Positions 9,859 to 26,205 of a stretch of 32,175 nt of DNA are shown piece by piece. The stretch is taken from the NCBI GenBank assembly GCA_964572575.1, contig CAZNGK010000001.1, positions 1-32,175 on the forward strand. Direction: 5' to 3'. Both the position numbers and the translations under genes were made by a program. The notes below the pieces were generated by a model, which had not been told where the DNA came from, searched no databases, and was given only the letters and a program-made list of their open reading frames with translations. The stretch comes from an uncultured Thermoplasmatales archaeon. GTDB lineage: Archaea; Thermoplasmatota; E2; UBA202; JdFR-43. Numbering within the stretch: position 1 is the first letter of the stretch; each line of letters begins with the position of its first letter.

Positions 9859-9884
9859 TTCCCCAAAAGGGGAAAATTTAAAAA
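9859..9884 (+). promoter_or_regulatory. Family-B module B1: palindrome TTCCCCAAAAGGGGAA fused to the TATA-like AAATTTAAAAA
   Basis: The first T of the palindrome is 48 nt upstream of ATG 9907, and the architecture matches B2-B5. Confidence 0.7.
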
Positions 9885-9906
9885 CCAATTCTATATTTAT
9901 AAATCA

Positions 9907-10242
9907 ATGAACATACTTGGGATACTTGAACTGGATGAAAGAAATAGAGTGTATTTCCCATCAATTGTGTTTGATATTCTTGATAAACCAGAGCATTTAA
10001 AAATTGTTGAAAAAATCATTGATGGAAAGAACCAGATAGTTATTGAATCTGAAAATTATGGTGGAAAAACAATTGCTAAAATAAATGTAAATGCCAATAT
10101 GAGGAGAGGAACTATACCAAAAAAGGTTAGAGAAAAGTTATCATTGAATGCTCATAATCCATTTATCATATTACTCAAAAATGATAGAAATGAGATAATG
10201 ATGAAAAGGTTGGATGTTGAAAAAATAGTTGGAGATGATTAA
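9907..10242 (+). CDS. AbrB/SpoVT-like DNA-binding protein (two swapped-hairpin-like repeats)
   Basis: RVYFPSIVFDIL and GTIPKKVREKLSL resemble the AbrB/MazE-type motif. First gene after B1. Confidence 0.55.
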   Translation: MNILGILELDERNRVYFPSIVFDILDKPEHLKIVEKIIDGKNQIVIESENYGGKTIAKINVNANMRRGTIPKKVREKLSLNAHNPFIILLKNDRNEIMMKRLDVEKIVGDD

Positions 10243-10243
10243 G

Positions 10244-11029
10244 ATGAATCTGGAAGTTATGCACAATAGAATGAGAAAGGCGAAGGAAATTGCTAAAAGT
10301 TTGAGGAATATGGAAGCAGATGGCTACTACATACTCATAAGACCGCACATGAAAGTAGGGGGTGTCGTATTTGCCCTTGATACGGTATATACAAAAGAAG
10401 GTCCGCAAAGATTTATGCATTTTGTTGATATTGAAGATTTTAAACCTTATGTAGAACCATATGAGGAGTGGGATTTACTTGAACAATCGTTTGTTCCCAA
10501 TATAACAAAATTCGGATTTGTTTGGCTAACATGCAGGCAAAATCATCTTCCAGAATCTGAAAAGTTATACTGGATACACCCAGCGGATGCAGAGCATGTT
10601 AAAGATTCAGAAAAAACCATTAAGAGATTAATGCAGGAATTAAATGAGTTAAAAAGAAGAAATGATGAATTGAGCGATCAAAACAATTTCCTATCATCTG
10701 AATTACAGGCATTAAATGAAAGAATTAGTGATTATGAGAGTAAGGTAACAAAACTTACATTGCAGAATGAACATTTGAGTTCAACATTACTTGAGTATGA
10801 GATAAATATCAATAGATTACAATCTGTGGTAAATAAGATGATTGCATACTATGAGCAGAGTGTTGCCAAAGCAAAGGAGGAAGGTAAATATGAAGCAATG
10901 GAAGGTCTTGATAAATTTAAGACAGAAGCAATGAGGTTGCAGGAAATAATGGCGATGTTCAACACAATGGGATATGGAGGTAAAGAGATTAAAGAAGAAA
11001 AAACAGTAGAAAAAAAGGTTGAAGGATAA
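10244..11029 (+). CDS. coiled-coil protein
   Basis: The C-terminal half is heptad-rich (ELNELKRRNDELSDQNNFLSSELQALNERISDYESKV...). ATG 10244 follows the upstream stop 10240-10242; the track start 10229 is TTG. Confidence 0.6.
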   Translation: MNLEVMHNRMRKAKEIAKSLRNMEADGYYILIRPHMKVGGVVFALDTVYTKEGPQRFMHFVDIEDFKPYVEPYEEWDLLEQSFVPNITKFGFVWLTCRQNHLPESEKLYWIHPADAEHVKDSEKTIKRLMQELNELKRRNDELSDQNNFLSSELQALNERISDYESKVTKLTLQNEHLSSTLLEYEININRLQSVVNKMIAYYEQSVAKAKEEGKYEAMEGLDKFKTEAMRLQEIMAMFNTMGYGGKEIKEEKTVEKKVEG

Positions 11030-11031
11030 AT

Positions 11032-11475
11032 ATGGGGATAAAAGAACCATTCTGCGTTAATTTCGTAAAGACAAACTGCCCATACTGTAAGATAGGGGAT
11101 AGAATAATAAACCAGGGGTTTTTGAAAAATTATCTCCGATTGAACCACAATTTTACAATAATAAACATAAAGAAATATTATGGTGCAATGAAAATATGGT
11201 GGGATAAGGTATCTCCCAACATGCTTGGAGTTGATAGAACTGCTACGCCTTCATGGGTTTTCTTTGAAAATAAAAGAAGAATGTTTGGAAGACCAAAAAA
11301 AATATTCATATTGTCCAGAAAAAGCACTGGATATAAAATAAGAGATTTAAGAGATCAGGTTCTTGCATTAAAAGACAGCATGGAGGAGTGGTTGTGGGAA
11401 ACATATCCAGAGTATATGGGAATGAAAAGCGAATTAATGCATATAGGAGAGGAGGAGTATATGTATGTCATCTAA
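11032..11475 (+). CDS. glutaredoxin/thioredoxin-fold-like protein with a CPYC motif
   Basis: FVKTNCPYCK is the classic glutaredoxin active-site context. The C-terminal extension is unassigned. Confidence 0.5.
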   Translation: MGIKEPFCVNFVKTNCPYCKIGDRIINQGFLKNYLRLNHNFTIINIKKYYGAMKIWWDKVSPNMLGVDRTATPSWVFFENKRRMFGRPKKIFILSRKSTGYKIRDLRDQVLALKDSMEEWLWETYPEYMGMKSELMHIGEEEYMYVI

Positions 11476-12220
11476 AAAATATAAATTAAAAGCGGTTGAA
11501 GGCATAAGTTATGAACAGATGACAGATTCGCTTGATAATCTTTACAGGTATGGCAGGATAGTAAGAAATGTTTATGGTGTTGAGGTTTCAGAACCATTTA
11601 CACAAATAGGTGCAGAAGTATTGAATGTAAAGTTAGATGAGGAGGCAACAGTAACTGATTACATCATATATGGAAAAGAAATAATTGAATACCCAAAACA
11701 ACAGGAATTTGGTGAATTATTTGATGGAATAAACCCGCATTATCAACTTATTCATCAATTATTGAGAGATCATGACAGAATATCAGAAAAAGCATTGATA
11801 AGATTATACACAGAAAAATATAGATTTTTACCAAATAACAGAAGTGGCATAAACTATTTAAAAGAAATACTTGAAAGAATGAGATTGAACGGTTATTTAC
11901 TTCTTGAAATAGAAAGGGAAGGATTATCAAGAATAATTTGGTATAAAATTGGCAGAGGTATCAGAACAAGGAACAAAAGAAGGTTGGAAGCAAAGGAAGG
12001 TTATGATCCTGTTATGCTTGCCATATATGACTTTTTAGATAATTTTGTTGAAGGTGCTACATTCAATGATATTTTCAGATATATGGTTAATGGAATAGCA
12101 TGGCTTGAAACGATAAATGATCTTGAAAGATATTTAAATTTGATGGTAACTCTTGGGAATATAGTGGAAGTAAATGGAATGTATAGGGTAAAAGAGCCGA
12201 TAAAACCTTTCCAGCATTGA
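11465..12220 (+). CDS. hypothetical protein (251 aa), possible wHTH repeats
   Basis: Overlaps the upstream gene by 11 nt. Intact ORF. Confidence 0.55.
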   Translation: MSSKKYKLKAVEGISYEQMTDSLDNLYRYGRIVRNVYGVEVSEPFTQIGAEVLNVKLDEEATVTDYIIYGKEIIEYPKQQEFGELFDGINPHYQLIHQLLRDHDRISEKALIRLYTEKYRFLPNNRSGINYLKEILERMRLNGYLLLEIEREGLSRIIWYKIGRGIRTRNKRRLEAKEGYDPVMLAIYDFLDNFVEGATFNDIFRYMVNGIAWLETINDLERYLNLMVTLGNIVEVNGMYRVKEPIKPFQH

Positions 12221-12225
12221 TTATA

Positions 12226-12252
12226 TTCCCTAAAAAGGGAAAATTTATATAT
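12226..12252 (+). promoter_or_regulatory. Family-B module B2: TTCCCTAAAAAGGGAA plus TATA AATTTATATAT
   Basis: 47 nt from the first T to ATG 12273, directly upstream of the micro-protein/radical-SAM operon. Confidence 0.7.
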
Positions 12253-12272
12253 GTTGCAGTAATTATTATTTG

Positions 12273-12452
12273 ATGCCGATAACGGTGCAGGATGCGGTTA
12301 CTTTAAAAAACATTCCTAAATCTTTATGTGATTTACTTGGAGGAATACACACAAGAGAGGGAGATTGCATTGCTGTCATAGAATTAAGCGATGAAAATCC
12401 AAACATAGCAAAATTGATAAAATTGGAAAAAAGGAGGGGTCTGCGTGAATGA
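12273..12452 (+). CDS. two-Cys micro-protein paralogue 1 (59 aa), candidate rSAM substrate
   Basis: PKSLCDLLGG...GDCIAV, ends EKRRGLRE, aligns with the next two ORFs. Confidence 0.55.
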   Translation: MPITVQDAVTLKNIPKSLCDLLGGIHTREGDCIAVIELSDENPNIAKLIKLEKRRGLRE

Positions 12453-12633
12453 AAATAAAAAAATAAAGAGAGTATATGTTACAAGATTTAAGGATTTAGA
12501 TCCAACAATCTGTGAGGAAAAACTAAAGGGTAAATTAAATGGCGATGTTTGTGAAGTCAATGTCATTGAATATGAGGATGGAGAAAAGGAGTTTGTTTCA
12601 TCAGATGAAGTAGAGAAAAGGGGGTTGAGATAA
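12445..12633 (+). CDS. two-Cys micro-protein paralogue 2 (62 aa)
   Basis: The GTG start is 5 nt after the SD AAGGAGGGG and overlaps the upstream stop. PTICEEKLKG...GDVCEV, ends EKRGLR. Confidence 0.55.
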   Translation: MNENKKIKRVYVTRFKDLDPTICEEKLKGKLNGDVCEVNVIEYEDGEKEFVSSDEVEKRGLR

Positions 12634-12830
12634 TGTTGAAAAGAAAAGGTGATAGGAAAATAGTTGTGATTGATGGAAATCAGATAAGCCCTACTGTGTG
12701 CGAGGATGTGCTTGAGGGAACTTTTGATAACAAGTCAAATAAGTGCTATGTGGCAAGGGAAAAGATAGATGAAAACAAGTCAATACTTGAGAAATTGGAT
12801 ATTGAGATAATAGAAGGAAATGAAGAATGA
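12633..12830 (+). CDS. two-Cys micro-protein paralogue 3 (65 aa)
   Basis: TAATG overlap, SD AAGGGGG. PTVCEDVLEG...NKCYV. Confidence 0.55.
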   Translation: MLKRKGDRKIVVIDGNQISPTVCEDVLEGTFDNKSNKCYVAREKIDENKSILEKLDIEIIEGNEE

Positions 12831-13831
12831 GCAAGTTACAACTGTTCATCTTCCTAACAAACATATGTAATTTGAGATGTAAGGGATGTCCAGTATTTAA
12901 GGATATACACAGAAGTTTAACATTAAAAGATATAGAAAAAATAGCAACAACATGGGATTACTCAAGAGTTGCACTTCTTGGTGGAGAGCCATATGCATAC
13001 AAAGATTTGAATAAAGTTGTTGATATGTTCAACAAGCCAGTTACAATATACACCAATGGAACTATGTTGAGAGAGGATAACATTATTGAAAATGTTGTAT
13101 ATGCTGTTTCTCTTGATTCTTTAAACCAAAAAATTAATGATACCATAAGAGGTCAGGGCGTTCATAAGAAAGTGATGCATGCTTTGAATACATTGAGAAA
13201 AAATAAGGAGAAAAAGAATATTAAAGAAATCATAATAAGAACAACATATAACTCAAGAAATTATAGCGATATTTTCAATTTAATTGAGTTTGCTGAAAAA
13301 AATGAATTTGGATTGGCATTACATCCAAGAATTGGTTGGGAAGTGCAGGATGAAGGGATATACGCTGGTCTTACCGCAGAGCAACAATTGAATTTGTTTA
13401 GAGAAATTATCAAACATGATAAGATGGTGATCCTAACACCCCATTTTTTCCAGTGGATTGGGAATAAACATTATAGATGTCCTGCTGGAGAATTTAGATT
13501 GGCAATAAGAGAAAACGGAATGGTAAAGCCATGTCAGTGGGGTAGTTATATAATAGGAAGTATAAGAAATCATGAATTTGACTATTTTAGACAGAAAGGA
13601 ATAGAATATAATAGAGAATTTGTTCAAAAGAGGATTCCAAAATCATGCTTATTTTGTGAAAGGGTTATGCAGTGTCATGGAGGATGTTTATTAATAAACG
13701 ATACAGTAAGATGCCCGTTAAGATATAATGGCGGATCATATAATATAAGAAGATTTTATGGAAATAGTGATATAAGTAGATTTAAGGTTGGATTGAAAAG
13801 GTTGGGAAGAATTGGTTTTAGTGGATGTTAG
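12827..13831 (+). CDS. radical SAM enzyme with a C-terminal SPASM domain (peptide-maturase type)
   Basis: CNLRCKGC (Cx3Cx2C) at residues 14-21 and a GGEP motif. Complete 7-Cys SPASM pattern: CPAGEFRLAIRENGMVKPC (Cx12Gx4C), then CLFCERVMQCHGGC (Cx2Cx5Cx3C), then ...RC. ATGA overlap with paralogue 3. Confidence 0.9.
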   Translation: MSKLQLFIFLTNICNLRCKGCPVFKDIHRSLTLKDIEKIATTWDYSRVALLGGEPYAYKDLNKVVDMFNKPVTIYTNGTMLREDNIIENVVYAVSLDSLNQKINDTIRGQGVHKKVMHALNTLRKNKEKKNIKEIIIRTTYNSRNYSDIFNLIEFAEKNEFGLALHPRIGWEVQDEGIYAGLTAEQQLNLFREIIKHDKMVILTPHFFQWIGNKHYRCPAGEFRLAIRENGMVKPCQWGSYIIGSIRNHEFDYFRQKGIEYNREFVQKRIPKSCLFCERVMQCHGGCLLINDTVRCPLRYNGGSYNIRRFYGNSDISRFKVGLKRLGRIGFSGC

Positions 13832-14733
13832 ATAAATTCCTCACTTTCTTCCTCCTCTTTATCAATTTCCTCAATTTTTTCTTTTACAAGATCCCATATT
13901 TTATCCCTGAATTTGGGATTTTTTTCAATTGCTTTTTCTATAACCTTTATTAATTCACTTTCCTTCATTTCCTCCGCCGATTTGCCAAGAAATTCACCAA
14001 GATATTTTTGATATATCTTTTCTCTTAATTTGTCATTTTCAATTGCACTTAACATATCATATACTACTCCAATAGTTTCACTATATAGATCAGCAAATTT
14101 TTCACCGCTTTTATCGGTTTTAATAGCACCTACCTTCGATTTTAATACCTTTATTTTTTTCACTACAACATCTCTTATGAATGCAATCTTTTCATCATCG
14201 GTATAATAATTTTTAATAAATTCAGCAAGTTTTTCAAGAGCAACAGTTAAATCAACATGCAGTTCCTGACCTCTTAACATATCTCTTTCAATTTCATCAA
14301 GATAACCTACTATTTTTTTAACAGAATCTGAAAAGTTACCATAAGATATTTTATAAAATCTGATCGGGAAATATATGCCATAATCTGATAGCAGAGAAAC
14401 TATCTCTTTATATCTTGAATAAAATGTTATGATAAAATTATCATCATAGCCATTGTTTTCAACCAATTTTTTCAATGTTAGTAATTTGGATTTAATCTCA
14501 TTGATGTATTGGCTATCATAACCATTTATTGTCATGTATGTTAATATATCACCAGCAAACCCATTGTAGTATTTTCTAAATTTTTCCATATCGCCTTCGT
14601 TCAATATTCTTGGTATCCACTCAACATAAAAATTTATCCTTCTTAATAAACTCCACTTTTCGCCTTCTTTTTCTATGAGTAACTTCATTTGTGCTGGCTT
14701 TTCAAATTCTCTTACTTTTTCTATTGCTTCCAC
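13828..14733 (-). CDS. hypothetical protein (about 300 aa), helical, acidic C-terminus
   Basis: The track ORF extends to 14790 through promoter module B3. GTG 14733 lies exactly 47 nt from the palindrome, as in B2 and B4. An alternative ATG is at 14688. Confidence 0.55.
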   Translation of the reverse strand: MEAIEKVREFEKPAQMKLLIEKEGEKWSLLRRINFYVEWIPRILNEGDMEKFRKYYNGFAGDILTYMTINGYDSQYINEIKSKLLTLKKLVENNGYDDNFIITFYSRYKEIVSLLSDYGIYFPIRFYKISYGNFSDSVKKIVGYLDEIERDMLRGQELHVDLTVALEKLAEFIKNYYTDDEKIAFIRDVVVKKIKVLKSKVGAIKTDKSGEKFADLYSETIGVVYDMLSAIENDKLREKIYQKYLGEFLGKSAEEMKESELIKVIEKAIEKNPKFRDKIWDLVKEKIEEIDKEEEESEEFI

Positions 14734-14751
14734 ACTATGTAAATATGAACA

Positions 14752-14780
14752 ATAATAAAAAATTTCCCTTTTTGGGGAAG
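14752..14780 (-). promoter_or_regulatory. Family-B module B3 (minus strand: TTCCCCAAAAAGGGAA plus ATTTTTTATT)
   Basis: Same palindrome-plus-TATA architecture as the other B copies. Confidence 0.6.
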
Positions 14781-14816
14781 TGAAAAACATTTAAAAACAG
14801 TAGTAAAATTGTTATT

Positions 14817-15134
14817 ATGCAACCCAAAATCATAAAATTAGAAAAAATAAGGCATACACTGTTACAAAAGGCAAAAAAGTTTTCAGTTAAATGGGATGAT
14901 AAGAATGTAAAGATATTCATAAAAGGTTGTCTTGAAGATGGCGGAGTTCCAATGTTCAAAGATAGATTTGCTGGAGAAAGATTTGAGGTTGATGGAAAAC
15001 CAGCAGTGTTGGGAATCTGTTATGGTGGAAAGGGAAGATGGAAGGATTCACAATGGTTTAAAGATGTTCCAGAAGAAGATATTGATGTTATTGAAAGCAT
15101 GACAGGAGAGTGGAAAGAATTTCTTTCTGAATAA
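14817..15134 (+). CDS. hypothetical protein (105 aa)
   Basis: Intact ORF divergent from 13828-14733. Confidence 0.5.
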   Translation: MQPKIIKLEKIRHTLLQKAKKFSVKWDDKNVKIFIKGCLEDGGVPMFKDRFAGERFEVDGKPAVLGICYGGKGRWKDSQWFKDVPEEDIDVIESMTGEWKEFLSE

Positions 15135-15171
15135 AAAAGAAAATATTTAATATATCTTTAAATATAATATT

Positions 15172-15483
15172 ATGCCAGATATTGGTGGTGATTTAAAAGG
15201 AGTTAAAGAAATAACCGCATGTGCCAGTAGAACAACCGATCTTTATTTTGATTTGGATCAAGTGAATTTCGGTTTTGGAATAAATACCATTCTTGATAAA
15301 TTTGAAAAATGGAGGGAAATATGCAAAATAAGAAGTGATGATGTATTCGTTCCTAAAAAGTTAATCAAAGATGCTATCAGAGATTATAAAGAGGGAAAGC
15401 ATGATCTTGTGAAAGGACAACTTGAAACTGCACAGAAGCAAATAATGAGGGAAGCATTGATAAAAATATCAAGAGCAAAATGA
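15172..15483 (+). CDS. hypothetical protein (103 aa)
   Basis: TATA-like tatttaatat about 25 bp upstream. Intact ORF. Confidence 0.55.
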   Translation: MPDIGGDLKGVKEITACASRTTDLYFDLDQVNFGFGINTILDKFEKWREICKIRSDDVFVPKKLIKDAIRDYKEGKHDLVKGQLETAQKQIMREALIKISRAK

Positions 15484-15812
15484 ATGGCGATTACATATTG
15501 CCAAAAATCTTTAATCCAACAGCACTTAAAGTAATAGAATTTTTTTTAAGAAAAAATGAGGAGAATGGTGAGGGCAAGGAATATAATCTGTCAAAATTTG
15601 CTGAAGAATCTGGAATATCAAAAGGTGCATTGCACAATGCAATAAAAATACTGGAGGAATATGGTATAATAACATCAAAAGAAAAGCCAGTTAATGGAGG
15701 ATATGCAAAAATAATTGAAATTGATTGGGATAATGAAATGGTATATCTTCTGATGAACACATTTTCCGCACTTATTAAGTTTATTGATGCATATAACTGT
15801 TCAAAAAAATGA
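15480..15812 (+). CDS. winged-helix transcription regulator (110 aa)
   Basis: NLSKFAEESGISKGALHNAIKILEEYGIITSKE. ATGA overlap with the upstream gene. Confidence 0.65.
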   Translation: MNGDYILPKIFNPTALKVIEFFLRKNEENGEGKEYNLSKFAEESGISKGALHNAIKILEEYGIITSKEKPVNGGYAKIIEIDWDNEMVYLLMNTFSALIKFIDAYNCSKK

Positions 15813-15854
15813 ACGCTTCCAATTATTTATAAACCCTTTTTATATTACATAATC

Positions 15855-16157
15855 ATGAGATCGCAAGCAAGAGAAATGGGGTTTGAACCTGTGTTTTATA
15901 GAACAAGGAAACCAGGGAAGTTTTCACCGAAATCCAAGATGGTGTTCCCGCAGAAAGGACCAAGATTTACACATAAGACAAGCCAGCAGAAAAAGATCGC
16001 AGAGGCAGGAAGGTTCTGCGGTGCTATAATAAAGAAGCAGGACCGCTTTGATGGACCAGAGGGCGTGGAAAAGAGAAGGATGGCGATGGCTGATTGCATT
16101 AGGGAACAGTTTGGACACGATCCCATCTACGGACCAGAGGGTTGGTGGAAGGACTAA
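15855..16157 (+). CDS. basic hypothetical protein (100 aa) in a locally GC-rich island
   Basis: TATA tatttataaa 20-25 bp upstream and a T-rich tract downstream. Its composition differs clearly from its neighbours, so an RNA gene is not excluded. Confidence 0.45.
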   Translation: MRSQAREMGFEPVFYRTRKPGKFSPKSKMVFPQKGPRFTHKTSQQKKIAEAGRFCGAIIKKQDRFDGPEGVEKRRMAMADCIREQFGHDPIYGPEGWWKD

Positions 16158-16202
16158 CCAAACACAGGTTCTAAAAAATCCTCTTTCCCCAATTTTTTAT
16201 TT

Positions 16203-16301
16203 TTATTTACAGAATGAGTATCCACATTTTTTACAATAATAACATACTCTACTCTTGTTTCTTTTCTTTGTCATAGTTTTACCACAACTGGGGCATTTCA
16301 T
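16203..16301 (-). CDS. 32-aa zinc-ribbon micro-protein, below the ORF-track cutoff
   Basis: MKCPSCGKT...CYYCKKCG. ATGA overlap with the stop of 16298-16573. Confidence 0.45.
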   Translation of the reverse strand: MKCPSCGKTMTKKRNKSRVCYYCKKCGYSFCK

Positions 16302-16573
16302 CCTATCAATTCCTCAACTTCTTTCTCAAAATTATCACTGTAACCTATAATACATTTCTTTATTTTTTTATCATCAACCTCGCATATGGTTGGCATCATC
16401 GGAGTTTCAATTGAATCAAGTATATCTGGATTCTCATAATTTTTTAGTTCGGAAAAATCTTTAGCAAATTCTATTTCAATTCCTCTTTCTTCAGCAATTT
16501 TTTCAACAATTGGTAGTGCCTTTTTACATGGCTCACAATCTTCGTCGCCTATAAATAATATCTTTTTACCCAT
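16298..16573 (-). CDS. thioredoxin/glutaredoxin-fold redox protein (CEPC active site)
   Basis: 91 aa. FIGDEDCEPCKKALP followed by a cis-Pro-like MMPTI. The ATG is 21 bp downstream of the A7 TATA. Confidence 0.7.
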   Translation of the reverse strand: MGKKILFIGDEDCEPCKKALPIVEKIAEERGIEIEFAKDFSELKNYENPDILDSIETPMMPTICEVDDKKIKKCIIGYSDNFEKEVEELIG

Positions 16574-16579
16574 AAAGTT

Positions 16580-16602
16580 AAATACAATTTTATTATTTAA
16601 AG
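16580..16602 (-). promoter_or_regulatory. Family-A promoter module, copy A7
   Basis: aaatacaattttattatttaaag. Confidence 0.6.
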
Positions 16603-17163: not shown

Positions 17164-17179
17164 TGTAAAACTTTTACAT
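17163..17179. promoter_or_regulatory. 8-bp-arm palindrome atgtaaaa-c-ttttacat abutting the TATA CCTTAAATA (17186-17194)
   Basis: Lies between the stop at 17161-17163 and the MTase ATG 17216. Shares the 12-mer ttacatgaaaaa with the hairpin at 7220-7247. Confidence 0.5.
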
Positions 17180-17215
17180 GAAAAACCTTAAATATTCTTT
17201 TTATATTCTTATCAT

Positions 17216-19547: not shown

Positions 19548-20037
19548 AATAAATAATATTATAACTGGACATTGGGCGTTGCCAAGACCAATTGGAAAAT
19601 ATAAAACACGACATCCAGATACATTATTAGTAAGATTGGAAGCACTTATAGGACCATATAGCATTAAAAAGATATTGCATTTATTTTGTGGTATATCAAA
19701 ATTCCCTAATACAGAGAGAGAGATCAGAATTGATATAAATCCAGAGGTAAAACCAGATTATATTATTGATTTAACTAAAGAAAAACTACCGTTTGAAGAT
19801 AATTCGTTTGATATTGTTTATGCAGATCCACCTTACTATGATTTCCCGCCTTACTCCTTTGTTGATGAAGCAGTTAGAGTTCTTAAACCATATGGATATT
19901 TAGCAATACTTCATCCATTAGTTTATAAAACACCAAAACAAACAAAAAGATGGGCGGTTATATCAATAGGCACTGGTCCAAATATGAGATTGCGATGTTT
20001 AAATATATTTAGAAAGATTAAAGTTGATGAACAATAA
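19528..20037 (+). CDS. small SAM-dependent methyltransferase with a DPPY motif (third MTase)
   Basis: LHLFCGIS (motif I-like) followed by DIVYADPPYY (motif IV). The likely start is ATG 19531 or 19537, after the SD AGGGTGAT. Confidence 0.6.
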   Translation: MMKMNYEINNIITGHWALPRPIGKYKTRHPDTLLVRLEALIGPYSIKKILHLFCGISKFPNTEREIRIDINPEVKPDYIIDLTKEKLPFEDNSFDIVYADPPYYDFPPYSFVDEAVRVLKPYGYLAILHPLVYKTPKQTKRWAVISIGTGPNMRLRCLNIFRKIKVDEQ

Positions 20038-20242
20038 AAGAATGGCATATACATTTGCTAAATATGAACATAAATTTGAAAATTTAACAAATATTGCTAT
20101 AATCATAACAACAATTGTTGCATATTTTATTAAAATAAATATAATTGTTTTCTCACTAATTATAATCATTGCAGTAATTCATACAGTAGCAAGAATATGC
20201 CATATTTTTGAGAAGCATTACTTTAACAACTCAAGAAAATAG
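20024..20242 (+). CDS. small membrane protein (72 aa)
   Basis: One long hydrophobic stretch. The stop codon overlaps the tRNA 3' end by 2 nt. Confidence 0.45.
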   Translation: MMNNKRMAYTFAKYEHKFENLTNIAIIITTIVAYFIKINIIVFSLIIIIAVIHTVARICHIFEKHYFNNSRK

Positions 20243-20314
20243 CGGGGAGAGGATTTGAACCTCTGATCTTCGGGATATGAACCCGATGGGTTATCCTGAC
20301 TACCCTACCCCGCT
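20241..20314 (-). tRNA. tRNA-Met (anticodon CAT), initiator-like
   Basis: Hand-folded cloverleaf: AGCGGGG/CCCCGCT acceptor with A1:U72, D stem GGGT/ACCC, anticodon stem TCGGG/CCCGA (three G:C pairs next to the loop), loop TTCATAT, T arm AGAGG-TTCAAAT-CCTCT. 74 nt, with no encoded CCA. Confidence 0.9.
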
Positions 20315-20672
20315 ACTTCAATTCATCTAAAGTTAAAATGCCAAGATCCATTAAAAGTTTTACCATGTTTATAGTTTGATTTTTTATATCCTCAAGAACT
20401 TCAGAATGATCTTCTGAATTTGGCAACTCTTTAAAAGGAATGCACTCATTATCAATCACTTCAAACCCACCACCAGGGCGTTTTCTGTATGGCATACCAT
20501 CTGGCTTTTTCCCGCCCCTTATCTTCCTTACTTGTATTACAATATCATCCTCATCTACTGGATTGTTCCTTCTGAATCTGTTCAACCATGCTCTTTCAAC
20601 CCAGTTCCATCCACAGGTGGGGCAAACCACATAATTTTCCCTAACATCTCCATCTTCACCAACATACGACAT
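20313..20672 (-). CDS. hypothetical protein (119 aa), basic Gly-rich centre
   Basis: Intact ORF. Its stop codon overlaps the tRNA 5' end by 2 nt. Confidence 0.55.
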   Translation of the reverse strand: MSYVGEDGDVRENYVVCPTCGWNWVERAWLNRFRRNNPVDEDDIVIQVRKIRGGKKPDGMPYRKRPGGGFEVIDNECIPFKELPNSEDHSEVLEDIKNQTINMVKLLMDLGILTLDELK

Positions 20673-20681
20673 TATATCACC

Positions 20682-22175
20682 TTATGGCTTATATGGGACA
20701 TCAGGACCTTTTTTGATGATTTCATCTAATACTCCTTTTATTTTATTTCTGAATATTGCCACAACTATTAAAATTATTCCTATCGCTGACAATATTATAT
20801 ACCCATAACCACCATGAGATGATGAATAAACTGTAACCTTCTTTTCATATGATGTTGCATAATTGTAATCCACAACTATTGAATATGTTCCTGCACTTGT
20901 TGGTGTCCAACTTCCAATGCCATTAATTAAATTGATGAATCCATATGGCATTCCATTTCTATAAATATCCACTCTATTTATATCAGTTATATACTCCTGT
21001 GTATTTTCATCAATCAATTCAACTTGATATGCCCTGTCTTCCTTAACAGAACCATAAATGAAATTGCCATTGCTATCTTTCATAATTATTCTTGGGTTGT
21101 AATATGCCTCAAAAGTTTTCTCCTCCTTTACACCATCTGCTTTTACTTCTATCTCGTATTTGCCTGCCACATCTGGAGTAAATTCTATTTCTCCATTATC
21201 AAAGTCATCGCTTATTGCCCTGCCATCTGGCGTAGATATTTCATATTCTCCTGCTTCTGGAGTAACTTTTATAACCATCCTATCCCCAACATTAACTTTT
21301 TTATCAACATCTATTGTTATTTTAGATGTTGAAACATTAACTGATTTTGTAACCGTTTCTCCTTTATACTGCCCAATCAATATCCATTTGCCAGAAGCAT
21401 CAAATGTAATACTCACCTGACCATTATCGTTTGTATCCTTCAAAACTTGCGAGCCATCTGGTTTAACTACTATTAAACTTCCCTTAACATTGTTATTTCC
21501 AAGTTTTAATGTGGCAATTTTTGTATCCCCTTTCTTAATATTCTTATCAATGCTTATATCCAGTTTTCCTTCTTGTGTGCTTGCCGATTTAGAAATATTG
21601 AAAAAGTGATAGGTTATTTCTCCATCACTCCACACAAGCAATAACATTGCACTTCCATAATCATCTTTGCTTAAATTTATAAATGTAAATGGAACTCCTT
21701 CTGCAATATTTATGGAATACATTCTTCCAGTTTCACTGCATGATATAAACCCTGTTGCACTCATTTTTGATGGAGAAACTATTGATATTGTAGATCCCGC
21801 TTTTGGATTTGGTGGAAATATCAAAACAGATTTTTTGGATGTTATATACACCTGCTGGGTTATTATGTTGCCATTGTATTCATAATTTATCAATCCGTTT
21901 TCACTACCACTTATCGTAAATCCTATTGTTATTGTTTTTCTTTCATAGGGTTTAAGCACATATGTTGTCTTGTATAAAAAGTAGTTCTTTATGCCTACAA
22001 CACTGATATTTACAATTGTTTGTTCATCCCTATCGTTGTATATCTCAACACTCTGCATAACAAATTTTCCGTTCTCTCCCTCAAGTGTTATTATTGGCGG
22101 ATTAATCTCTATTGCATATACACTGTTCATTATAATCACAAAAACTGCCAGCAACATCACTATTTTTGCCTTCAT
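20682..22175 (-). CDS. secreted, C-terminally anchored beta-rich surface protein (497 aa)
   Basis: N-terminal signal-like MKAKIVMLLAVFVIIMNSVYA, Ig-like beta-rich repeats, and a C-terminal TM (YIILSAIGIILIVVAIF) with a basic tail. B4 promoter upstream. Confidence 0.7.
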   Translation of the reverse strand: MKAKIVMLLAVFVIIMNSVYAIEINPPIITLEGENGKFVMQSVEIYNDRDEQTIVNISVVGIKNYFLYKTTYVLKPYERKTITIGFTISGSENGLINYEYNGNIITQQVYITSKKSVLIFPPNPKAGSTISIVSPSKMSATGFISCSETGRMYSINIAEGVPFTFINLSKDDYGSAMLLLVWSDGEITYHFFNISKSASTQEGKLDISIDKNIKKGDTKIATLKLGNNNVKGSLIVVKPDGSQVLKDTNDNGQVSITFDASGKWILIGQYKGETVTKSVNVSTSKITIDVDKKVNVGDRMVIKVTPEAGEYEISTPDGRAISDDFDNGEIEFTPDVAGKYEIEVKADGVKEEKTFEAYYNPRIIMKDSNGNFIYGSVKEDRAYQVELIDENTQEYITDINRVDIYRNGMPYGFINLINGIGSWTPTSAGTYSIVVDYNYATSYEKKVTVYSSSHGGYGYIILSAIGIILIVVAIFRNKIKGVLDEIIKKGPDVPYKP

Positions 22176-22195
22176 TATTCCATAATATAGGAATT

Positions 22196-22222
22196 GTTTA
22201 TAAATTTTCCCCTTTTGGGGAA
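22196..22222 (-). promoter_or_regulatory. Family-B module B4 (minus strand: TTCCCCAAAAGGGGAA plus AATTTATAAAC)
   Basis: 47 nt from the first T (22222) to ATG 22175. Confidence 0.7.
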
Positions 22223-22223
22223 T

Positions 22224-22505
22224 TTAATAAACTCTTTCAGAAATCTCTCTTATTTTTTTAATATACTTATCAATATTTTTACCTGTAAACTTTTTAATTT
22301 CGATAAGGTTATTTTTCTCAAGTTTAACATACATTGTAGGAACTGGCTCATATCCTGATTTATATCCCATGCTTTCCCTTGTAAATGCAACTGTTATATC
22401 AAAATCATCCTTTCTATACTTTTCAACTTTATCCGCATTTTTAATTTTACTTTCAAAAAACCTTAAAAGATATTGTCCTCTTGGTGAAGTTAATTCATCT
22501 GCCAT
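22224..22505 (-). CDS. hypothetical protein (93 aa)
   Basis: Intact ORF with its stop just after B4. Confidence 0.5.
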   Translation of the reverse strand: MADELTSPRGQYLLRFFESKIKNADKVEKYRKDDFDITVAFTRESMGYKSGYEPVPTMYVKLEKNNLIEIKKFTGKNIDKYIKKIREISERVY

Positions 22506-22543
22506 TATGAAAAAATATTTAATACAATAAAAGATTTACTATT

Positions 22544-23491: not shown

Positions 23492-23529
23492 AATGAAAAA
23501 TTCTATATATTAAAAACAAATTTTTTATT

Positions 23530-24129
23530 GTGAATTGGAAGCACCATATAAGGAGGTTGATAGAACATAATGAACATTATGTTACAGTAAAGTTATTTGG
23601 TAAGGAAATTCATCCATGTGCAAGATGTTTTGGAAAGTGGCTTGGGATGTTATTTACATTGCCAATTGGATTGCTGTTTTTTATGGGGAAGTTTCACACT
23701 ACATTTACAGTTGGCTTTATAACATCATGGCTTTTGGCATTGCCATCAATTGTGGATTGGATCTCTATAAAATATACCAACAGGGAGGGAAGCAACCGTT
23801 TAAGATTTATAACAGGGTTTTTACTTGGTGCTGGTATTGTTACATACTTCTTGATCATGCCTGCTACTTGGATGTTCAAATTTTCAACATTTTTGGCATA
23901 TGAAATAGTTTTTGGGCTGTTGATACTTCACAAGAATTATGGAATAACCGATTTCATAACTAATCCAAAATACACATTCAGTTGCATTCAAACTGGATGC
24001 TGTTGTGGTGCATGTGATCCATGTGTTTCATCCTGTGTAAATGGATGTATATGTTTAATGCTGATGGTTATAACATTGCCAATATTGTGCTGTATATTTG
24101 GAATGTTTAAAAAGGAGGGAGAAAAATGA
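23530..24129 (+). CDS. membrane protein, DUF2085-like, with a Cys-rich C-terminal tail
   Basis: HPCARCFGKWLG resembles the DUF2085 signature (from memory). The tail CIQTGCCCGACDPCVSSCVNGCICLM...LCC is Cys-rich. GTG start. Confidence 0.55.
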   Translation: MNWKHHIRRLIEHNEHYVTVKLFGKEIHPCARCFGKWLGMLFTLPIGLLFFMGKFHTTFTVGFITSWLLALPSIVDWISIKYTNREGSNRLRFITGFLLGAGIVTYFLIMPATWMFKFSTFLAYEIVFGLLILHKNYGITDFITNPKYTFSCIQTGCCCGACDPCVSSCVNGCICLMLMVITLPILCCIFGMFKKEGEK

Positions 24130-25595
24130 AAAACAAAAAAATGGTTATACTCTCAATAGTTGCTGGGCTAATAATAGTATCTGCTGTATATATTTCATAT
24201 AATACTGGATATTTGCAGAAACTACTGCATATTCAAGCATATGACAAAGGAGATTCCCCATACGATGATTATATTTGCTTCGTATATAAGATAGAACCAA
24301 GAGATGGAGAGGGTGTAGAAGGCATTCCAGAAAGATTAACTGCTTATATATACACAAATGCACCAGCAAATAGAACAAATGTTCAGTTTGAATGGGAAGA
24401 TGACAACAATAAATATTTATCAGCACATATATGGCTTGATGGTCAAAATATTCTTGGTGGCGGAACTGTTGAAAAAATTAGCCAATATGAGTATAAGGTT
24501 TCCTATCCAATAGCATCTGGTCATAGTTATAATTATAAATCTGGGTATAAATGGTGTTTAACTGTATGGCTAACCAGCAAGCCACATGGATATGCTGGTG
24601 CTTCAATATGGTATCTTTCAGAACTATATTGGACATGGTATAAAAATGATAGACAAGCACCATATTACAAACCAACTGCAAATGCAGGAGGTCCATATAT
24701 AGCACAGGTTGGTGAAAGAATTAAATTAGATTCAACTAAAAGCACTACACCATCTGGCAGTGAAATTATAGATTGGTATTGGGATATAAACAATGATGGT
24801 ATTTGGGATAAATATGGGAAAACAGCATATATATCATTTCAAAATACTGGAATATATACAATAAAACTTCTTGTAGTAAATGATAAAGCATTTTATGATG
24901 AGGATACCACAACTATAACCGTTACTAATGTTAATAATCCACCTGTTGCAGATGCTGATGGTCCGTATTCTGGAAAGATGGGAGAAGTTATAACCCTTGA
25001 TGGGAGTAAGAGTTATGATCCTGATGGAAATGAACTATCCTATGAATGGGATACGGATGGAGATGGAAGATATGATGCAACTGGAGAAAAAATAAATATT
25101 AGATATTACACTACTGGTAACCATACAGTTACTTTAAAAGTTAGCGATGGTCAATATTCAGATACGGATACCACATATGTTGTTATTTCATCATCAGATC
25201 CTGAAAATCAGTTGCCCGTTGCAGATGCTGGTGGTCCATACTATGGAAATGTTTCTGAACCTATAACACTTGATGGCTCTGGTAGTTATGATCCAGATGG
25301 TTATATATCAACTTGGAAGTGGGATATAAACAATGATGGGGTGTGGGATGTAAGCGGTCAGTATGCAACCGTATCGTTTAAAGTTGCAGGGAACTATACC
25401 GTAAAATTGATGGTGATTGACAATGATGGTGGTATTTCATACGATAATGCAACAATAAACATTAATCAACCAAGTATAGGTCCTATTGATACAGATTCTT
25501 GGGTGAAAAATACTATTATTATGCTTTTGATAATTGTTGCCATAATTTCCATCATTACCATCATTTACATCATCAAAAAGAAAAAAATCATCTAA
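24126..25595 (+). CDS. membrane-anchored protein with three PKD domains
   Basis: Three repeats of A[ND]AGGPY...LDGS.SYDPDG...W[DK]WD...DG...TV.L.V.D. N-terminal and C-terminal TM segments. ATGA overlap with the upstream gene. Confidence 0.85.
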   Translation: MKNKKMVILSIVAGLIIVSAVYISYNTGYLQKLLHIQAYDKGDSPYDDYICFVYKIEPRDGEGVEGIPERLTAYIYTNAPANRTNVQFEWEDDNNKYLSAHIWLDGQNILGGGTVEKISQYEYKVSYPIASGHSYNYKSGYKWCLTVWLTSKPHGYAGASIWYLSELYWTWYKNDRQAPYYKPTANAGGPYIAQVGERIKLDSTKSTTPSGSEIIDWYWDINNDGIWDKYGKTAYISFQNTGIYTIKLLVVNDKAFYDEDTTTITVTNVNNPPVADADGPYSGKMGEVITLDGSKSYDPDGNELSYEWDTDGDGRYDATGEKINIRYYTTGNHTVTLKVSDGQYSDTDTTYVVISSSDPENQLPVADAGGPYYGNVSEPITLDGSGSYDPDGYISTWKWDINNDGVWDVSGQYATVSFKVAGNYTVKLMVIDNDGGISYDNATININQPSIGPIDTDSWVKNTIIMLLIIVAIISIITIIYIIKKKKII

Positions 25596-26154
25596 TACAA
25601 TACCACAGAAAAGTTATCACACACATAAATGCAAGTGCTACAATAAAAAGATGATCCTTGCTTATGAATTTATTACCAAAAAAGTATAGTATTGCGAATG
25701 ATAATGTGAGTGTTAATCCAAATTTTATTGATTGATGTATTGGTGGAAGTTTATAATATGTTACACCATCAATCACATTATTCACTATTTTTCCATGGGC
25801 TAATAATCCAGTTAGTGCATCATTTAAAATATCATATGGATAAACAAGTTCATTCTCTATCTCCTGAAAAGTGAATTTATCTTTCTCAAGCCATTTATCT
25901 TTCATCAATTTTAAAATATCATCCTTAACCTGATCTACATCCACCTTTAATGATATAAATCTTGCACCTTTTTTATGCCATGAGAAAATAATGCCCTCGT
26001 TTGCCATATCATCAAGAATTGTAGAAACTGTTGATTTTGCTGGAGGATCTTTAAATGCTGTGTTCAAAAGTTTATAAATATCATTAAATCTGCATATCTT
26101 ATGTTTCTCCAAATATTTTATGATAACTTTTCTTATATCATCTGCTTCTCTCAT
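25588..26154 (-). CDS. membrane-tethered tandem wHTH protein
   Basis: Two wHTH-like modules (KICRFNDIYKLL...STVSTILDDMANEGII; ...LNDALTGLLAHGKI) followed by two C-terminal TM helices. B5 promoter upstream. Confidence 0.6.
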   Translation of the reverse strand: MREADDIRKVIIKYLEKHKICRFNDIYKLLNTAFKDPPAKSTVSTILDDMANEGIIFSWHKKGARFISLKVDVDQVKDDILKLMKDKWLEKDKFTFQEIENELVYPYDILNDALTGLLAHGKIVNNVIDGVTYYKLPPIHQSIKFGLTLTLSFAILYFFGNKFISKDHLFIVALAFMCVITFLWYCIR

Positions 26155-26180
26155 GTATGAAAATAAAATGATAAGTTGGA

Positions 26181-26205
26181 TATAAATTTTCCCCTTTTAG
26201 GGCAA
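26181..26205 (-). promoter_or_regulatory. Family-B module B5 (minus strand: TTGCCCTAAAAGGGGAA plus AATTTATA)
   Basis: Degenerate left arm. 51 nt from the first T to ATG 26154. Confidence 0.6.

Follow-up and report, generated by a model that had tools for sequence, protein, structure and literature searches.

The window (the whole 32,175 nt of DNA that was analysed) contains five copies of one palindrome, each ahead of a gene, which raises the question of what this motif is, which protein reads it and with what effect on the genes behind it. All five sites are described by the fixed-length 16-mer palindrome T[TG]CCC[CT]AAAA[GA]GGGAA, in which the inner pair varies; this replaces the spacer of four or five A residues of the original prediction. 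The pattern TTCCCY-N4-5-RGGGAA was found exactly four times in the window (+ strand positions 9859, 12226, 14764 and 22207) against 0.02 matches expected from shuffled sequence. When up to one mismatch was allowed, five sites were found against 0.92 expected and none of 100 shuffles gave five; the fifth site (26189-26204) begins TGCCC on its reading strand. A weight matrix built from 11 non-redundant sites scored the five sites at 32-48 bits, with the best unrelated position in the window at 4 bits and the shuffle maximum at 11 bits. Moreover, 5/5 sites fall in intergenic DNA, which makes up 9.2% of the window.

Read towards the gene, the sites begin at 9859 (+), 12226 (+), 14779 (-), 22222 (-) and 26204 (-), the first base being 48, 47, 46 (to GTG 14733), 47 and 50 nt from the start codon at sites 1-5. 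Three of these coordinates, and the distances for sites 1, 2 and 4, are as first proposed, whereas sites 3 and 5 had been placed one base off and given distances of 47 and 51 nt. Across 1-2 A, at an offset of 2-3 nt, each core is followed by a TATA-like octamer (TTTAAAAA, TTTATATA, TTTTTTAT, TTTATAAA and TTTATATC for sites 1-5) that begins 29-32 nt ahead of the start codon. This agrees with the earlier placing of the motif at what would be the BRE position, with a geometry that suggests leaderless transcripts. The sites are as follows (L numbers denote metagenomic relatives):

9859-9874, + strand: core of site 1, TTCCCCAAAAGGGGAA; identical in L033 and L034, with orthologous sites in L014, L016, L027 and L035
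9877-9884, + strand: TATA-like octamer of site 1, TTTAAAAA, 30 nt before ATG 9907
12226-12241, + strand: core of site 2, TTCCCTAAAAAGGGAA; orthologous site in L014 at 2629 (-), before the micro-protein/radical SAM operon
12244-12251, + strand: TATA-like octamer of site 2, TTTATATA, 29 nt before ATG 12273
14764-14779, - strand: core of site 3, TTCCCCAAAAAGGGAA, followed by a T-rich TATA-like stretch at 14755-14762 (TTTTTTAT)
22207-22222, - strand: core of site 4, TTCCCCAAAAGGGGAA; orthologous sites before a 497-509 aa gene in L014, L016, L017, L023 and L025
22197-22204, - strand: TATA-like octamer of site 4, TTTATAAA, 29 nt before ATG 22175
26189-26204, - strand: core of site 5, TGCCCTAAAAGGGGAA, one mismatch; same variant in L025
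26179-26186, - strand: TATA-like octamer of site 5, TTTATATC, 32 nt before ATG 26154

The suspicion that two open reading frames had been wrongly extended through the motif was confirmed (9394-9888 (-), as FSPFGE, and 13828-14790 (-), as TSPKRE); the true starts are likely ATG 9816 and, less certainly, GTG 14733. The motif precedes the units that had been named, and three of the five sites (1, 3 and 5) also serve divergent gene pairs:

9394-9816, - strand: divergently transcribed neighbour of site 1, with 42 nt between its ATG and the far core edge
9907-10242, + strand: first gene of unit 1 and first after site 1, 111 aa protein with a predicted MraZ-like double AbrB fold
10229-12220, + strand: rest of unit 1, coding for a 266 aa coiled-coil, a 147 aa thioredoxin-like and a 251 aa protein
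12273-13831, + strand: unit 2, three two-Cys micro-proteins and a radical SAM/SPASM enzyme
13828-14733, - strand: unit 3, 301 aa protein, GTG start uncertain
14817-16157, + strand: divergent partner operon of site 3 (105, 103, 110 and 100 aa), ATG 37 nt from the far core edge
15480-15812, + strand: 110 aa winged-helix protein (Lrs14/PadR/MarR-like) in the operon diverging from site 3, a rival candidate regulator
20239-20315, - strand: tRNA-Met with initiator features, directly downstream of unit 4 on the same strand
20313-22175, - strand: unit 4, 497 aa secreted, C-terminally anchored protein and a 119 aa protein
25588-26154, - strand: unit 5, 188 aa protein with two C-terminal membrane helices
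26247-26630, + strand: divergently transcribed neighbour of site 5, with 42 nt between its ATG and the far core edge

The gene order of unit 1 is kept in L014, L016, L019, L028, L029 and L031. Homologues of the 301 aa protein were not found, and the assignment of an N-terminal winged helix to the 188 aa protein is weak. The tRNA-Met lies inside the element and, as originally argued, not at an element/host border, because relatives are syntenic across its position; some have the same tRNA elsewhere or none. No similarity to the element was found in phage/virus and plasmid sequence collections.

Conservation bears directly on the nature of the motif. The metagenomic relatives (integrase 46-54% identical, G+C 31-47%) keep core and TATA box before orthologous genes at the same spacing while the flanks diverge. 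At every palindrome (type A) site in the window, L014, L016, L023 and L033 the first base lies 46-50 nt from the start codon, and in one relative the variant TTCCCAAATTTGGGAA retains the 16-nt palindromic form. The motif is a conserved cis-element and not a product of chance, and because relatives conserve it, it is very probably a binding site. In a sister clade the position and spacing are unchanged but the core is another one, GGTGGGAATAGTGGGAAAA. This is a direct repeat of GTGGG boxes, found in up to 8-9 copies per 20 kb and serving genes on one or both sides, with outward TATA boxes often flanking both. In the alignment, its left box occupies the same columns on the opposite strand, and only the invariant GGGAAA and the TATA box are common to both clades. 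Both core types occur in L014 and L016, where the genes orthologous to that behind site 5 carry the other type, TTGGTGTAAAAAATGGGAAAA. On this comparison, the palindrome is one of two interchangeable core types in the element family.

The first unit had been said to open with an AbrB-like protein, which holds and can be put more exactly. The AF2 model of the 9907-10242 product (pLDDT 91.2) was compared with the PDB using Foldseek: the top seven matches were all MraZ (probability 1.00, TM 0.54-0.64) and those that followed had a probability of 0.28 or less. We therefore assign it, with high confidence in the model, a MraZ-like double-AbrB fold. Pfam matches to MazE/AbrB and MraZ were sub-threshold in members of its family, which comprises 25 clusters among 1.84 billion representatives and in which R14 and R67 are invariant. 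Bacterial MraZ is encoded by the first gene of its own operon, which it represses through binding to three to four GTG(G/T) boxes with 10 bp spacing via K13, R15 and R86 (PMC12957436). In every relative, a cassette is directly followed by the ortholog of 9907-10242. Moreover, at the aligned contact positions the four proteins with GTGGG boxes in their own cassette have K-N-R...Q-R and the seven with the palindrome there have R-x-R...R-R; this correlation counts as one evolutionary event, because it follows a single split between two clades. L014 and L016 have both core types, yet only one MraZ-fold gene is seen in their available sequence. The MraZ-fold protein is the leading candidate regulator. 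All testable parts of the original interpretation held. Nothing points to a captured host regulator, as had been considered, and candidates are encoded by the element itself.

That a protein binds the core, which one it is, whether it represses or activates and where transcription begins are inferred. The palindrome is very probably an operator that overlaps the BRE, for a regulator encoded by an undescribed archaeal mobile element. The core would cover about -47 to -32 from the start codon, likely also the transcription start of a leaderless mRNA, and its right half GGGGAA with the next AA would form the BRE directly upstream of the TATA box. Two copies of the regulator, proposed to be the MraZ-fold protein encoded first behind site 1, would sit on the inverted pair of GGGAA boxes, which are 10 bp from centre to centre. 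That the regulator is dimeric, as first suggested, is plausible; the sister clade has a direct repeat in the same position. Since the bound regulator would cover the BRE and keep TFB/TBP off, five units would be repressed jointly: the regulator's own operon, so that it limits its own synthesis, the micro-protein/radical SAM operon, the gene for the 301 aa protein, that for the 497 aa surface protein, with the tRNA-Met following, and that for the 188 aa membrane protein. At sites 1, 3 and 5 the divergent gene starts 37-42 nt from the other core edge, and its promoter may be spared, perhaps even stimulated, because the divergent TATA box would lie ~10 nt from the operator. The units are probably repressed rather than activated, as judged from where the core lies and from the promoter itself: its BRE and TATA box look close to consensus, which favours a strong promoter being switched off over a weak one needing help. 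Taken as a whole, joint repression of the five units by the MraZ-fold regulator on the palindrome is our best explanation, and we judge it about evenly balanced between right and wrong. Against it, known MraZ proteins act as head-to-tail oligomers on direct repeats whereas the core in the window is an inverted repeat, and at site 3 a leaderless mRNA would have to begin with GTG, an unusual start.

Moreover, a small winged-helix protein restricted to the palindrome clade would be an equally natural binder of a palindrome. A dimer of the 15480-15812 product on the same operator is possible, although we regard it as somewhat unlikely. It would block the BRE-proximal promoters and, acting from the operator's far side, would keep its own divergent operon active; the MraZ-fold protein would then be the opposing or downstream partner in a switch of two regulators. 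Its model has a winged helix and a long C-terminal helix, with small dimeric archaeal and bacterial regulators as best PDB matches (Methanosarcina 3r0a, AbfR2/Lrs14-type, PadR/LmrR, MarR and ArsR), and there are weak HTH, MarR and CodY sequence matches. In L014, L016 and L035 a single palindrome lies between its operon and the divergently transcribed MraZ-fold operon. Homologues (7 clusters) were found in the palindrome clade only, with none on contigs of the direct-repeat clade. However, this correlation is weak because many genes are specific to the palindrome clade, and the gene is only the third of its operon. It also leaves unexplained the sister clade's GGGAAA cassette of the same size and position, which occurs without this protein and is more simply explained by a protein common to both clades.

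The archaeal BRE has the consensus RNWAAW, which GGAAAA matches, and GGGAAA with the TATA box is the sole part invariant across both clades; the element also uses several stereotyped promoter types. The core could accordingly be an extended promoter element marking very strong promoters for the host basal machinery or a host factor (an unusually long BRE, for example, or an upstream element for a particular TFB), with no dedicated regulator. We consider this doubtful, since the conserved block reaches 16-19 bp upstream of the TATA box, beyond TFB, and its distal half differs between the clades (TTCCCC vs GGTGGG) but does not vary within either, the pattern that a specific, co-evolving partner would leave. 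In addition, the direct-repeat core works beside TATA boxes in both directions with GGGAAA on one side only. Across one genome per species from 185,579 species, the core pattern gave 12 single matches, all in bacterial assemblies, and none of the representative archaea sequenced uses it, although the true host may be absent from that collection.

An RNA or single-stranded DNA hairpin, such as a terminator or insulator for the upstream gene, is very improbable. A stem of 5-6 bp with a 4-6 nt loop could form (-6 to -13 kcal/mol), and a same-strand upstream gene ends just ahead of the motif at sites 2 and 4, but z-scores are weak at three of the five sites and the divergent neighbours at sites 1, 3 and 5 send no transcript into it. 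The sense strand has no T-run after the motif, inner-pair changes are often one-sided (C with A), no Rfam family matched, and the sister clade's direct repeat in the same position is unable to fold into a hairpin, so the conserved property would be a duplex site. It is just as hard to credit that the copies serve DNA transactions rather than transcription, as integrase sites, origin repeats or centromeres for partition. A tyrosine recombinase is among the element's genes, and plasmid centromere-binding proteins are often small AbrB-, RHH- or winged-helix-type autoregulators, but the copies are strictly tied to a TATA box and, at a constant distance, to a start codon, at each of five scattered genes and throughout the relatives, no ParA-type gene is present in the window and no duplicated part of the tRNA was found within it.

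The proposed MraZ-fold regulator can be set beside known systems. Like MraZ, it has two AbrB-like swapped-hairpin halves in one chain and is encoded first in its operon, and like the MraZ boxes of the dcw/mra promoter, the core places short G-rich boxes about one helical turn apart in the protein's own promoter. The sister clade goes further, with GTGGG direct-repeat boxes and the K-x-R...R contact triad kept. However, the element's promoters are archaeal TATA/BRE rather than sigma-70, there are two boxes rather than three or four, and those in the window are inverted (GGGAA, 10 bp centre to centre). MraZ serves one chromosomal promoter whereas this site stands at five or more promoters of a mobile element, without dcw or rsmH context, and the 111 aa protein lacks the helical, ring-forming oligomerisation parts of MraZ and stays below Pfam cut-offs.

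In archaea, small element- or host-encoded DNA-binding proteins such as SSV1 F55, SIRV1 SvtR and the Lrs14-type autoregulators exert coordinated repression from sites that overlap the BRE/TATA of several promoters, their own included, as the element's site would. Their folds (RHH, winged helix) and their site sequences and arrangements are different, and we know of none that sits a constant 2-3 nt from the TATA box and recurs with it as a portable cassette. IncP plasmids carry KorA/KorB operators in many of their own promoters and encode the autoregulated repressor, placing backbone genes under one negative circuit (the kor regulon). The element resembles them in logic alone: both are mobile elements that repeat a single palindromic operator, always placed alike, across many of their promoters. 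The kor system is bacterial, uses other protein folds and has no evolutionary relation. The NrpR operator of methanogens, GGAA-N6-TTCC, is likewise a short GGAA/TTCC palindrome in A+T-rich archaeal promoters. However, the half-site order is reversed in the element (TTCCC-N6-GGGAA), its site is upstream and not downstream of the TATA box, and it has neither an NrpR-like gene nor a context of nitrogen genes. If the MraZ-fold reading is true, one regulator encoded by an uncharacterised archaeal mobile element would control five units jointly via a portable operator-promoter cassette, at three of the five sites within divergent, switch-like promoters. A second stereotyped promoter class is also present in the window; like the divergent pairs at three of the five sites and the two core types, it had been missed by the original prediction.

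In the window the palindromic core TTCCCY-N4-5-RGGGAA is matched exactly at four places, where shuffled sequence would give 0.02. Five are found when one mismatch is allowed (adding 26189-26204), against 0.92 expected, and five was reached in 0 of 100 shuffles. The original observation of a five-copy motif is thus borne out, although two of its coordinates were off by one and the fifth copy departs from the consensus.

Palindromic cores in the window (first base, strand, sequence)
9859, plus strand, core site 1, TTCCCCAAAAGGGGAA
12226, plus strand, core site 2, TTCCCTAAAAAGGGAA
14779, minus strand, core site 3, TTCCCCAAAAAGGGAA
22222, minus strand, core site 4, TTCCCCAAAAGGGGAA
26204, minus strand, core site 5, TGCCCTAAAAGGGGAA, with G at position 2

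All five cores are 16 nt long and are followed by 1-2 A and then a TATA-like octamer, the whole forming a cassette whose first base lies 48, 47, 46, 47 and 50 nt from the start codon (sites 1 to 5 in order). Each falls within the 9.2% of the window outside the gene list, and the two open reading frames that run through the motif are extension artefacts. A weight matrix built from 11 non-redundant sites scored the five sites at 32-48 bits, with the best unrelated position in the window at 4 bits and a shuffle maximum of 11 bits. In none of the loci compared does a copy of the core fall inside a gene.

At each of the five sites the TATA octamer begins 29-32 nt ahead of the start codon, with equal spacing in relatives; taking the start codon as the transcription start, this agrees with a TATA-to-start distance of about 30 nt. 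The archaeal BRE consensus is RNWAAW, and at all sites GGAAAA or GGAAAT stands immediately 5′ of the octamer in agreement with it. The proximal GGAA of the core, together with the following AA, forms GGAAAA, itself a good BRE match, and with the start codon as reference the core spans approximately -47 to -32. Since the 29-32 nt between octamer and start codon hold neither room nor sequence for a Shine-Dalgarno element, the mRNAs driven by the cassettes are most simply read as leaderless; genes internal to the operons have GGAGG or GGTGA upstream. Many palindrome sites also have a second start codon, that of a divergent gene, 37-44 nt from the far edge of the core (9816, 14817 and 26247 in the window; among relatives three times in locus L014, twice in L016 and also in L033). 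At such divergent sites the core has a second TATA box at a distance of about 10 nt.

A second stereotyped promoter class forms the largest repeat family of the window, of about 40 nt and with the pattern AAAC[CT]TTAAATA[AC]T...TTGTATT.

Copies of the second promoter class in the window
1-39
1135-1176
1954-1995
5465-5506
7126-7167
7709-7738
16580-16621
approximately 17180-17215

The genes that these copies precede encode two DNA methylases, a 452 aa protein, winged-helix proteins of TrmB-like and zinc-ribbon type and a thioredoxin-like protein. Behind some copies there is clearly a leader that includes a GGTGA-type ribosome-binding site, and similar sequence occurs in locus L019. The existence of this class beside the palindrome class suggests temporal or functional promoter classes.

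Approximately 20 related loci were collected in three ways: from integrase homologues, by scanning metagenomes for the 497 aa protein family, and from homologues of the gene that comes first behind site 1. Three are syntenic with the window from 9.9 to 29.4 kb, namely L014 (a JGI metagenome, 31% G+C), L016 (NCBI assembly GCA_905333815.1, 47% G+C) and L019 (35% G+C, on a 74.6 kb contig). Orthologous genes in relatives are preceded by the identical core type in the same orientation and at the same distance.

Palindromic cores in two syntenic relatives (position, strand, gene that follows or distance to start codon)
L014, 6009, minus strand, before the ortholog of the first gene behind site 1, 47 nt
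L014, 2629, minus strand, before the micro-protein/radical SAM operon
L014, 14560, minus strand, before the 509 aa gene, 46 nt
L016, 2568, minus strand, 48 nt
L016, 13283, minus strand, 46 nt

The core is identical in L033 and L034 while the upstream flank drifts, and the variant in L027 is still palindromic (TTCCCAAATTTGGGAA). It also occurs in L035 in the same divergent arrangement as in L016; L035 is a second lineage like L016, and the winged-helix proteins of both are 45-46% identical to that of the window. Its retention across 46-54% integrase identity and a 16-point difference in G+C argues that the core is functional. In L025 (3721), whose proteins are 95-99% identical to those of the window, the 93 aa gene at 22224-22505 is absent and site 4 directly faces the 104 aa gene, which shows that small insertions and deletions alter the surroundings of cassettes.

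In a sister clade (L019, L020, L022, L024, L028 and L029) the palindrome before the orthologous 509 aa gene is replaced by TTGGTGGGAATAGTGGGAAAA, a direct repeat of GTGGG boxes with a period of 9 (GTGGG-N4-GTGGG), with GGTGGGAATAGTGGGAAAA as a core sequence of the clade. There are 8-9 copies in about 20 kb of L019 and about 7 in L029. Typically the core lies between ATATAAATTTT and TTTTTAAA, with outward-facing TATA boxes at both sides; on the GGGAAAA side 47-48 nt separate the core start from the start codon, and the start codon on the opposite side is 31-35 nt (in some cases 42-43 nt) from that edge. The gene 25588-26154, which in the window follows the degenerate palindrome, has an ortholog in L014 and L016 that is preceded by a variant of this second core, TTGGTGTAAAAAATGGGAAAA. 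When nine orthologous promoters were aligned, only the GGGAAA and TATA positions were invariant, and TTCCCC of the palindrome fell in the same columns as GGTGGG of the direct repeat. The distal box of both cores is thus the same kind of G-run on opposite strands.

The core is very probably a protein-binding site for transcriptional control. The conserved block extends 16-19 bp upstream of the TATA box, beyond the reach of TFB contacts, and its distal half is clade-specific, so that a dedicated sequence-specific partner is the simplest explanation. Two small proteins are candidates for this partner, and the fuller statement, naming both the binder and the sign of regulation, has in our judgement about an even chance of being right.

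The first candidate is the 111 aa product of 9907-10242, whose gene lies directly behind site 1; in every relative, too, the ortholog comes first after a cassette. Its family is small (17 clusters in a set of 5.8 billion, 25 representatives among 1.84 billion). The AlphaFold model (AF2; pLDDT 91.2, pTM 0.83) shows two tandem AbrB-like swapped-hairpin halves in one chain, as in MraZ, and in a Foldseek search of the PDB ranks 1-7 were all MraZ (9qlg, 9sz7, 9r4j, 1n0e, 1n0f among them; probability 1.00, E 2e-3 to 2e-2, TMq 0.54-0.64), with all other matches at a probability of 0.28 or less. By sequence, the window protein has no Pfam match at E<0.01 and does not reach the threshold of the MraZ family (PF02381/UPF0040); five of 16 family members match MraZ in Pfam, the best at E 1.2e-3 and below the cut-off, and the family profile finds MraZ among PDB sequences at E 0.1. 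For AbrB/SpoVT/MazE (PF04014) the window protein gave E 0.072, and 5 of 16 members matched (best E 8.7e-5), all below the gathering score. In M. genitalium MraZ, DNA is contacted by K13, R15 and R86 in DXXXR-type loops (PMC12957436). The HMM alignment places R12-N13-R14 of the window protein on K13-N-R15 and R67 on R86, so that the basic residues of MraZ are present, and R14 and R67 are invariant among the 16 family sequences. Moreover, four proteins whose own cassette is a GTGGG direct repeat have K-N-R...Q-R, and seven with their own palindrome cassette have R-x-R...R-R, a correlation that fits a changed reading of the boxes but, coming from one split between two clades, carries weak statistics.

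The likeness to the MraZ system lies in the arrangement of the MraZ box and mraZ, with the gene first in its own operon; the window protein differs in standing outside the MraZ family by sequence and by genomic context. Bacterial mraZ opens the dcw cluster, with rsmH/mraW next; the genes after 9907-10242 instead encode one coiled-coil, one thioredoxin-like and one unknown protein, and neither rsmH nor an fts gene was found behind it. Against this protein as the binder, MraZ is known to bind direct repeats rather than inverted ones, the archaeal protein is shorter, without the ring-forming helices, and both core types are used in L014 and L016. The operator of MraZ consists of direct GTG(G/T) repeats with a 10 bp period at its own promoter; the window has inverted GGGAA boxes 10 bp apart, and the sister clade direct GTGGG boxes of period 9.

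The second candidate is the 110 aa product of 15480-15812, modelled with AF2 (pLDDT 84.3) as three helices, a wing and a long C-terminal helix, that is, a winged helix-turn-helix with a dimerisation helix in the manner of Lrs14, PadR and MarR. Its 13 PDB matches at E<1e-3 are all winged-helix regulators or TFE-alpha, the best being small dimeric regulators (Methanosarcina 3r0a, AbfR2/Lrs14-type, PadR, MarR and ArsR) and also TFE-alpha; Pfam HTH and MarR matches were below the cut-off. Homologues form 7 clusters, all of the palindrome clade. In L014, L016 and L035 the winged-helix operon and that of the MraZ-fold protein diverge from one palindrome, and in the window the winged-helix gene belongs to the operon that runs divergently from site 3. 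Palindromes are classically bound by dimers, which makes this protein a serious rival; we nevertheless rate the MraZ-fold protein as somewhat more likely. Among the small proteins of the palindrome clade the best conserved is a basic one of 100 aa, encoded directly 3′ of the winged-helix gene (15855-16157, plus strand; 70% identity in L014, 57% in L016; no Pfam match). The 188 aa membrane protein behind site 5 (25588-26154) is conserved in both clades, and its winged-helix assignment is weak.

As to the sign of regulation, a bound protein might activate or repress. Repression is preferred because the BRE and TATA box look near consensus, and because a steric block would work for either core orientation, as the sister clade requires. 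An element-encoded regulator would occupy the core and, since the core includes the BRE, would exclude TFB/TBP from the proximal promoter. The five units would be repressed together, with the regulator autoregulating negatively, and the distal divergent promoters would be spared or possibly helped.

A more elaborate reading, which we hold tentatively and think rather unlikely, makes the cassette the hub of a two-regulator switch, with co-evolution of geometry and regulator in a new family of archaeal elements or viruses. The MraZ-fold and winged-helix genes would be transcribed divergently from one operator, copied before the structural and late units, and the distal half-site would have been flipped in place between the sister clades, from inverted to direct, while the loops by which the MraZ-fold protein contacts DNA underwent K/R and Q/R changes. 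If true, nature would here provide a case in which an operator's geometry and its regulator have co-evolved, the distance to an archaeal TATA box staying fixed.

Other readings fared less well. The NrpR operator, GGAA-N6-TTCC, lies downstream of the TATA box of nitrogen-regulated genes, and is rejected because the core differs from it in both half-site order and position. A role as hairpin or terminator is unlikely and was likewise rejected: folding energies are modest, the z-scores of three sites are weak, transcription does not enter the core at three sites, and the direct-repeat core of the sister clade is unable to fold. The sole Rfam match was the tRNA. A bacterial sigma-70 promoter is rejected, there being no fitting -35/-10 pair; the tRNA also has an A1:U72 pair and a GGG:CCC anticodon stem, as archaeal/eukaryal initiators do.

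The window (33% G+C) consists almost entirely of ORFans. Other content comprises two N4/N6 DNA methylases, a third small methyltransferase, a tyrosine recombinase, a radical SAM/SPASM enzyme, a PKD-domain protein, a DUF2085 protein, several winged-helix proteins and one tRNA-Met. Archaeal and eukaryal initiator tRNAs typically have an A1:U72 pair and three G:C pairs in the anticodon stem, and the tRNA-Met (20239-20315, minus strand) has both. Together with the TATA/BRE-like promoter geometry and the TrmB-type and Lrs14-type winged-helix proteins, these initiator features point to an archaeal host.

The tRNA-Met adjoins, downstream and on the same strand, the unit behind site 4 (20313-22175, minus strand; 497 aa and 119 aa proteins). 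L017 and L018, with 497 aa proteins 99% and 96% identical to that of the window, have the tRNA placed as in the window, and in L019 the same tRNA, with compensatory stem changes, lies next to the radical SAM gene.

The tRNA in relatives
L017, 2595-2671
L018, 1854-1930
L019, 13439-13515

L014 and L016 have the integrase, methylase, 120 aa gene and 509 aa gene without the tRNA. Element genes lie on both sides of it, and the window holds no second copy of either tRNA half. The suggestion that the tRNA is not a simple border between element and host therefore holds, given synteny with L014, L016 and L019 across both sides, and the motif copies on either side of it lie within one element. The tRNA-Met is thus cargo of the element family; a link between its place downstream of a cassette unit and leaderless translation of the regulon is speculation.

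The pT26-2 family of Thermococcales and Methanococcales plasmids, defined by seven core genes, among them those for an AAA+ ATPase and for membrane proteins (PMC6972569), was considered for its habitat and tRNA/integrase context. No link was found: a PLSDB tblastn with the 497 aa protein and a megablast with 9000-22300 were empty, and the window has no ATPase. In its regulatory logic the system resembles the global operator networks of plasmids and archaeal viruses. More broadly, megablast and tblastn against PLSDB and INPHARED, exact look-ups of the window proteins, and IMG/VR scans with the 497 aa protein family and the direct-repeat core gave no match; no near relative of the window was found in PLSDB, INPHARED or IMG/VR. 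Scanning species-representative genomes with TTCCCYAAAARGGGAAAWTTT gave 12 single matches, all in unrelated bacterial assemblies, where by our own arithmetic about 2 are expected by chance at equal base frequencies and more in A+T-rich DNA; the one match in IMG/VR lies inside a phage gene. The literature covered, which is incomplete and no proof of absence, held no account of the motif strings or of MraZ-like or MraZ-fold regulators in archaea or archaeal viruses and elements.

An operator overlapping the BRE in an archaeal mobile element is of an already known kind. What is unusual here is the fold of the regulator, the way the operator is strictly fused to the TATA box, the cassette's bidirectional form and the inverted/direct switch between clades. 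The few known examples of mobile elements controlling archaeal transcription come from Sulfolobus and haloarchaeal viruses. In the present case an entire uncultured family offers a compact promoter module that can be recognised from sequence alone, in which operator, BRE, TATA box and leaderless start keep constant spacing. The module predicts co-regulated genes, corrects two gene starts, puts the tRNA-Met inside the element and names two small candidate binding proteins. To our knowledge the MraZ fold has so far been tied to bacterial cell-division control. Should the MraZ-fold protein be the binder, the MraZ reading of repeated G-rich boxes would extend to archaeal TATA/BRE promoters, and the inverted and direct boxes would be natural variants for studies of assembly on DNA. 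The cassettes, at 30-45 bp, could serve as portable regulated promoters for archaeal genetics.

Several further features were observed. At 12273-13831 (plus strand) the radical SAM/SPASM enzyme is encoded after three paralogous proteins of 59-65 aa, in each of which two Cys stand 12-14 residues from one another; the group resembles a RiPP-like cluster for peptide modification and is conserved in L014, L019, L028, L029 and L031. A 44-nt imperfect palindrome, GCAAAATTTCAACGAAAACCCCCCACTTTTTGTGTTAAATTTGC, has two intergenic copies (2371-2414 and 8588-8631, 80% identical) that bracket a 6.2 kb block of small minus-strand genes and may be terminators or ends of an inserted module. The 452 aa protein (5775-7133, minus strand) looks sliding-clamp-like by eye in its C-terminal 250 residues, and has no Pfam match and a 25% identical counterpart in L016. 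The methylases at 1171-1926 (minus strand) and 17216-18496 (plus strand) share a near-identical C-terminal stretch of about 35 residues (ending A.KRL) and differ elsewhere, which suggests recent recombination or domain exchange. Finally, several relatives occur on contigs of 53-75 kb (L019, 74,605 bp; L016, 74,400 bp; L028, 53 kb; the contig carrying P0031, 60 kb), two of them almost equal in size. These consist of similar ORFan-rich, cassette-driven genes, and may represent near-complete genomes from a large family of archaeal viruses or plasmids that IMG/VR, PLSDB and INPHARED lack.
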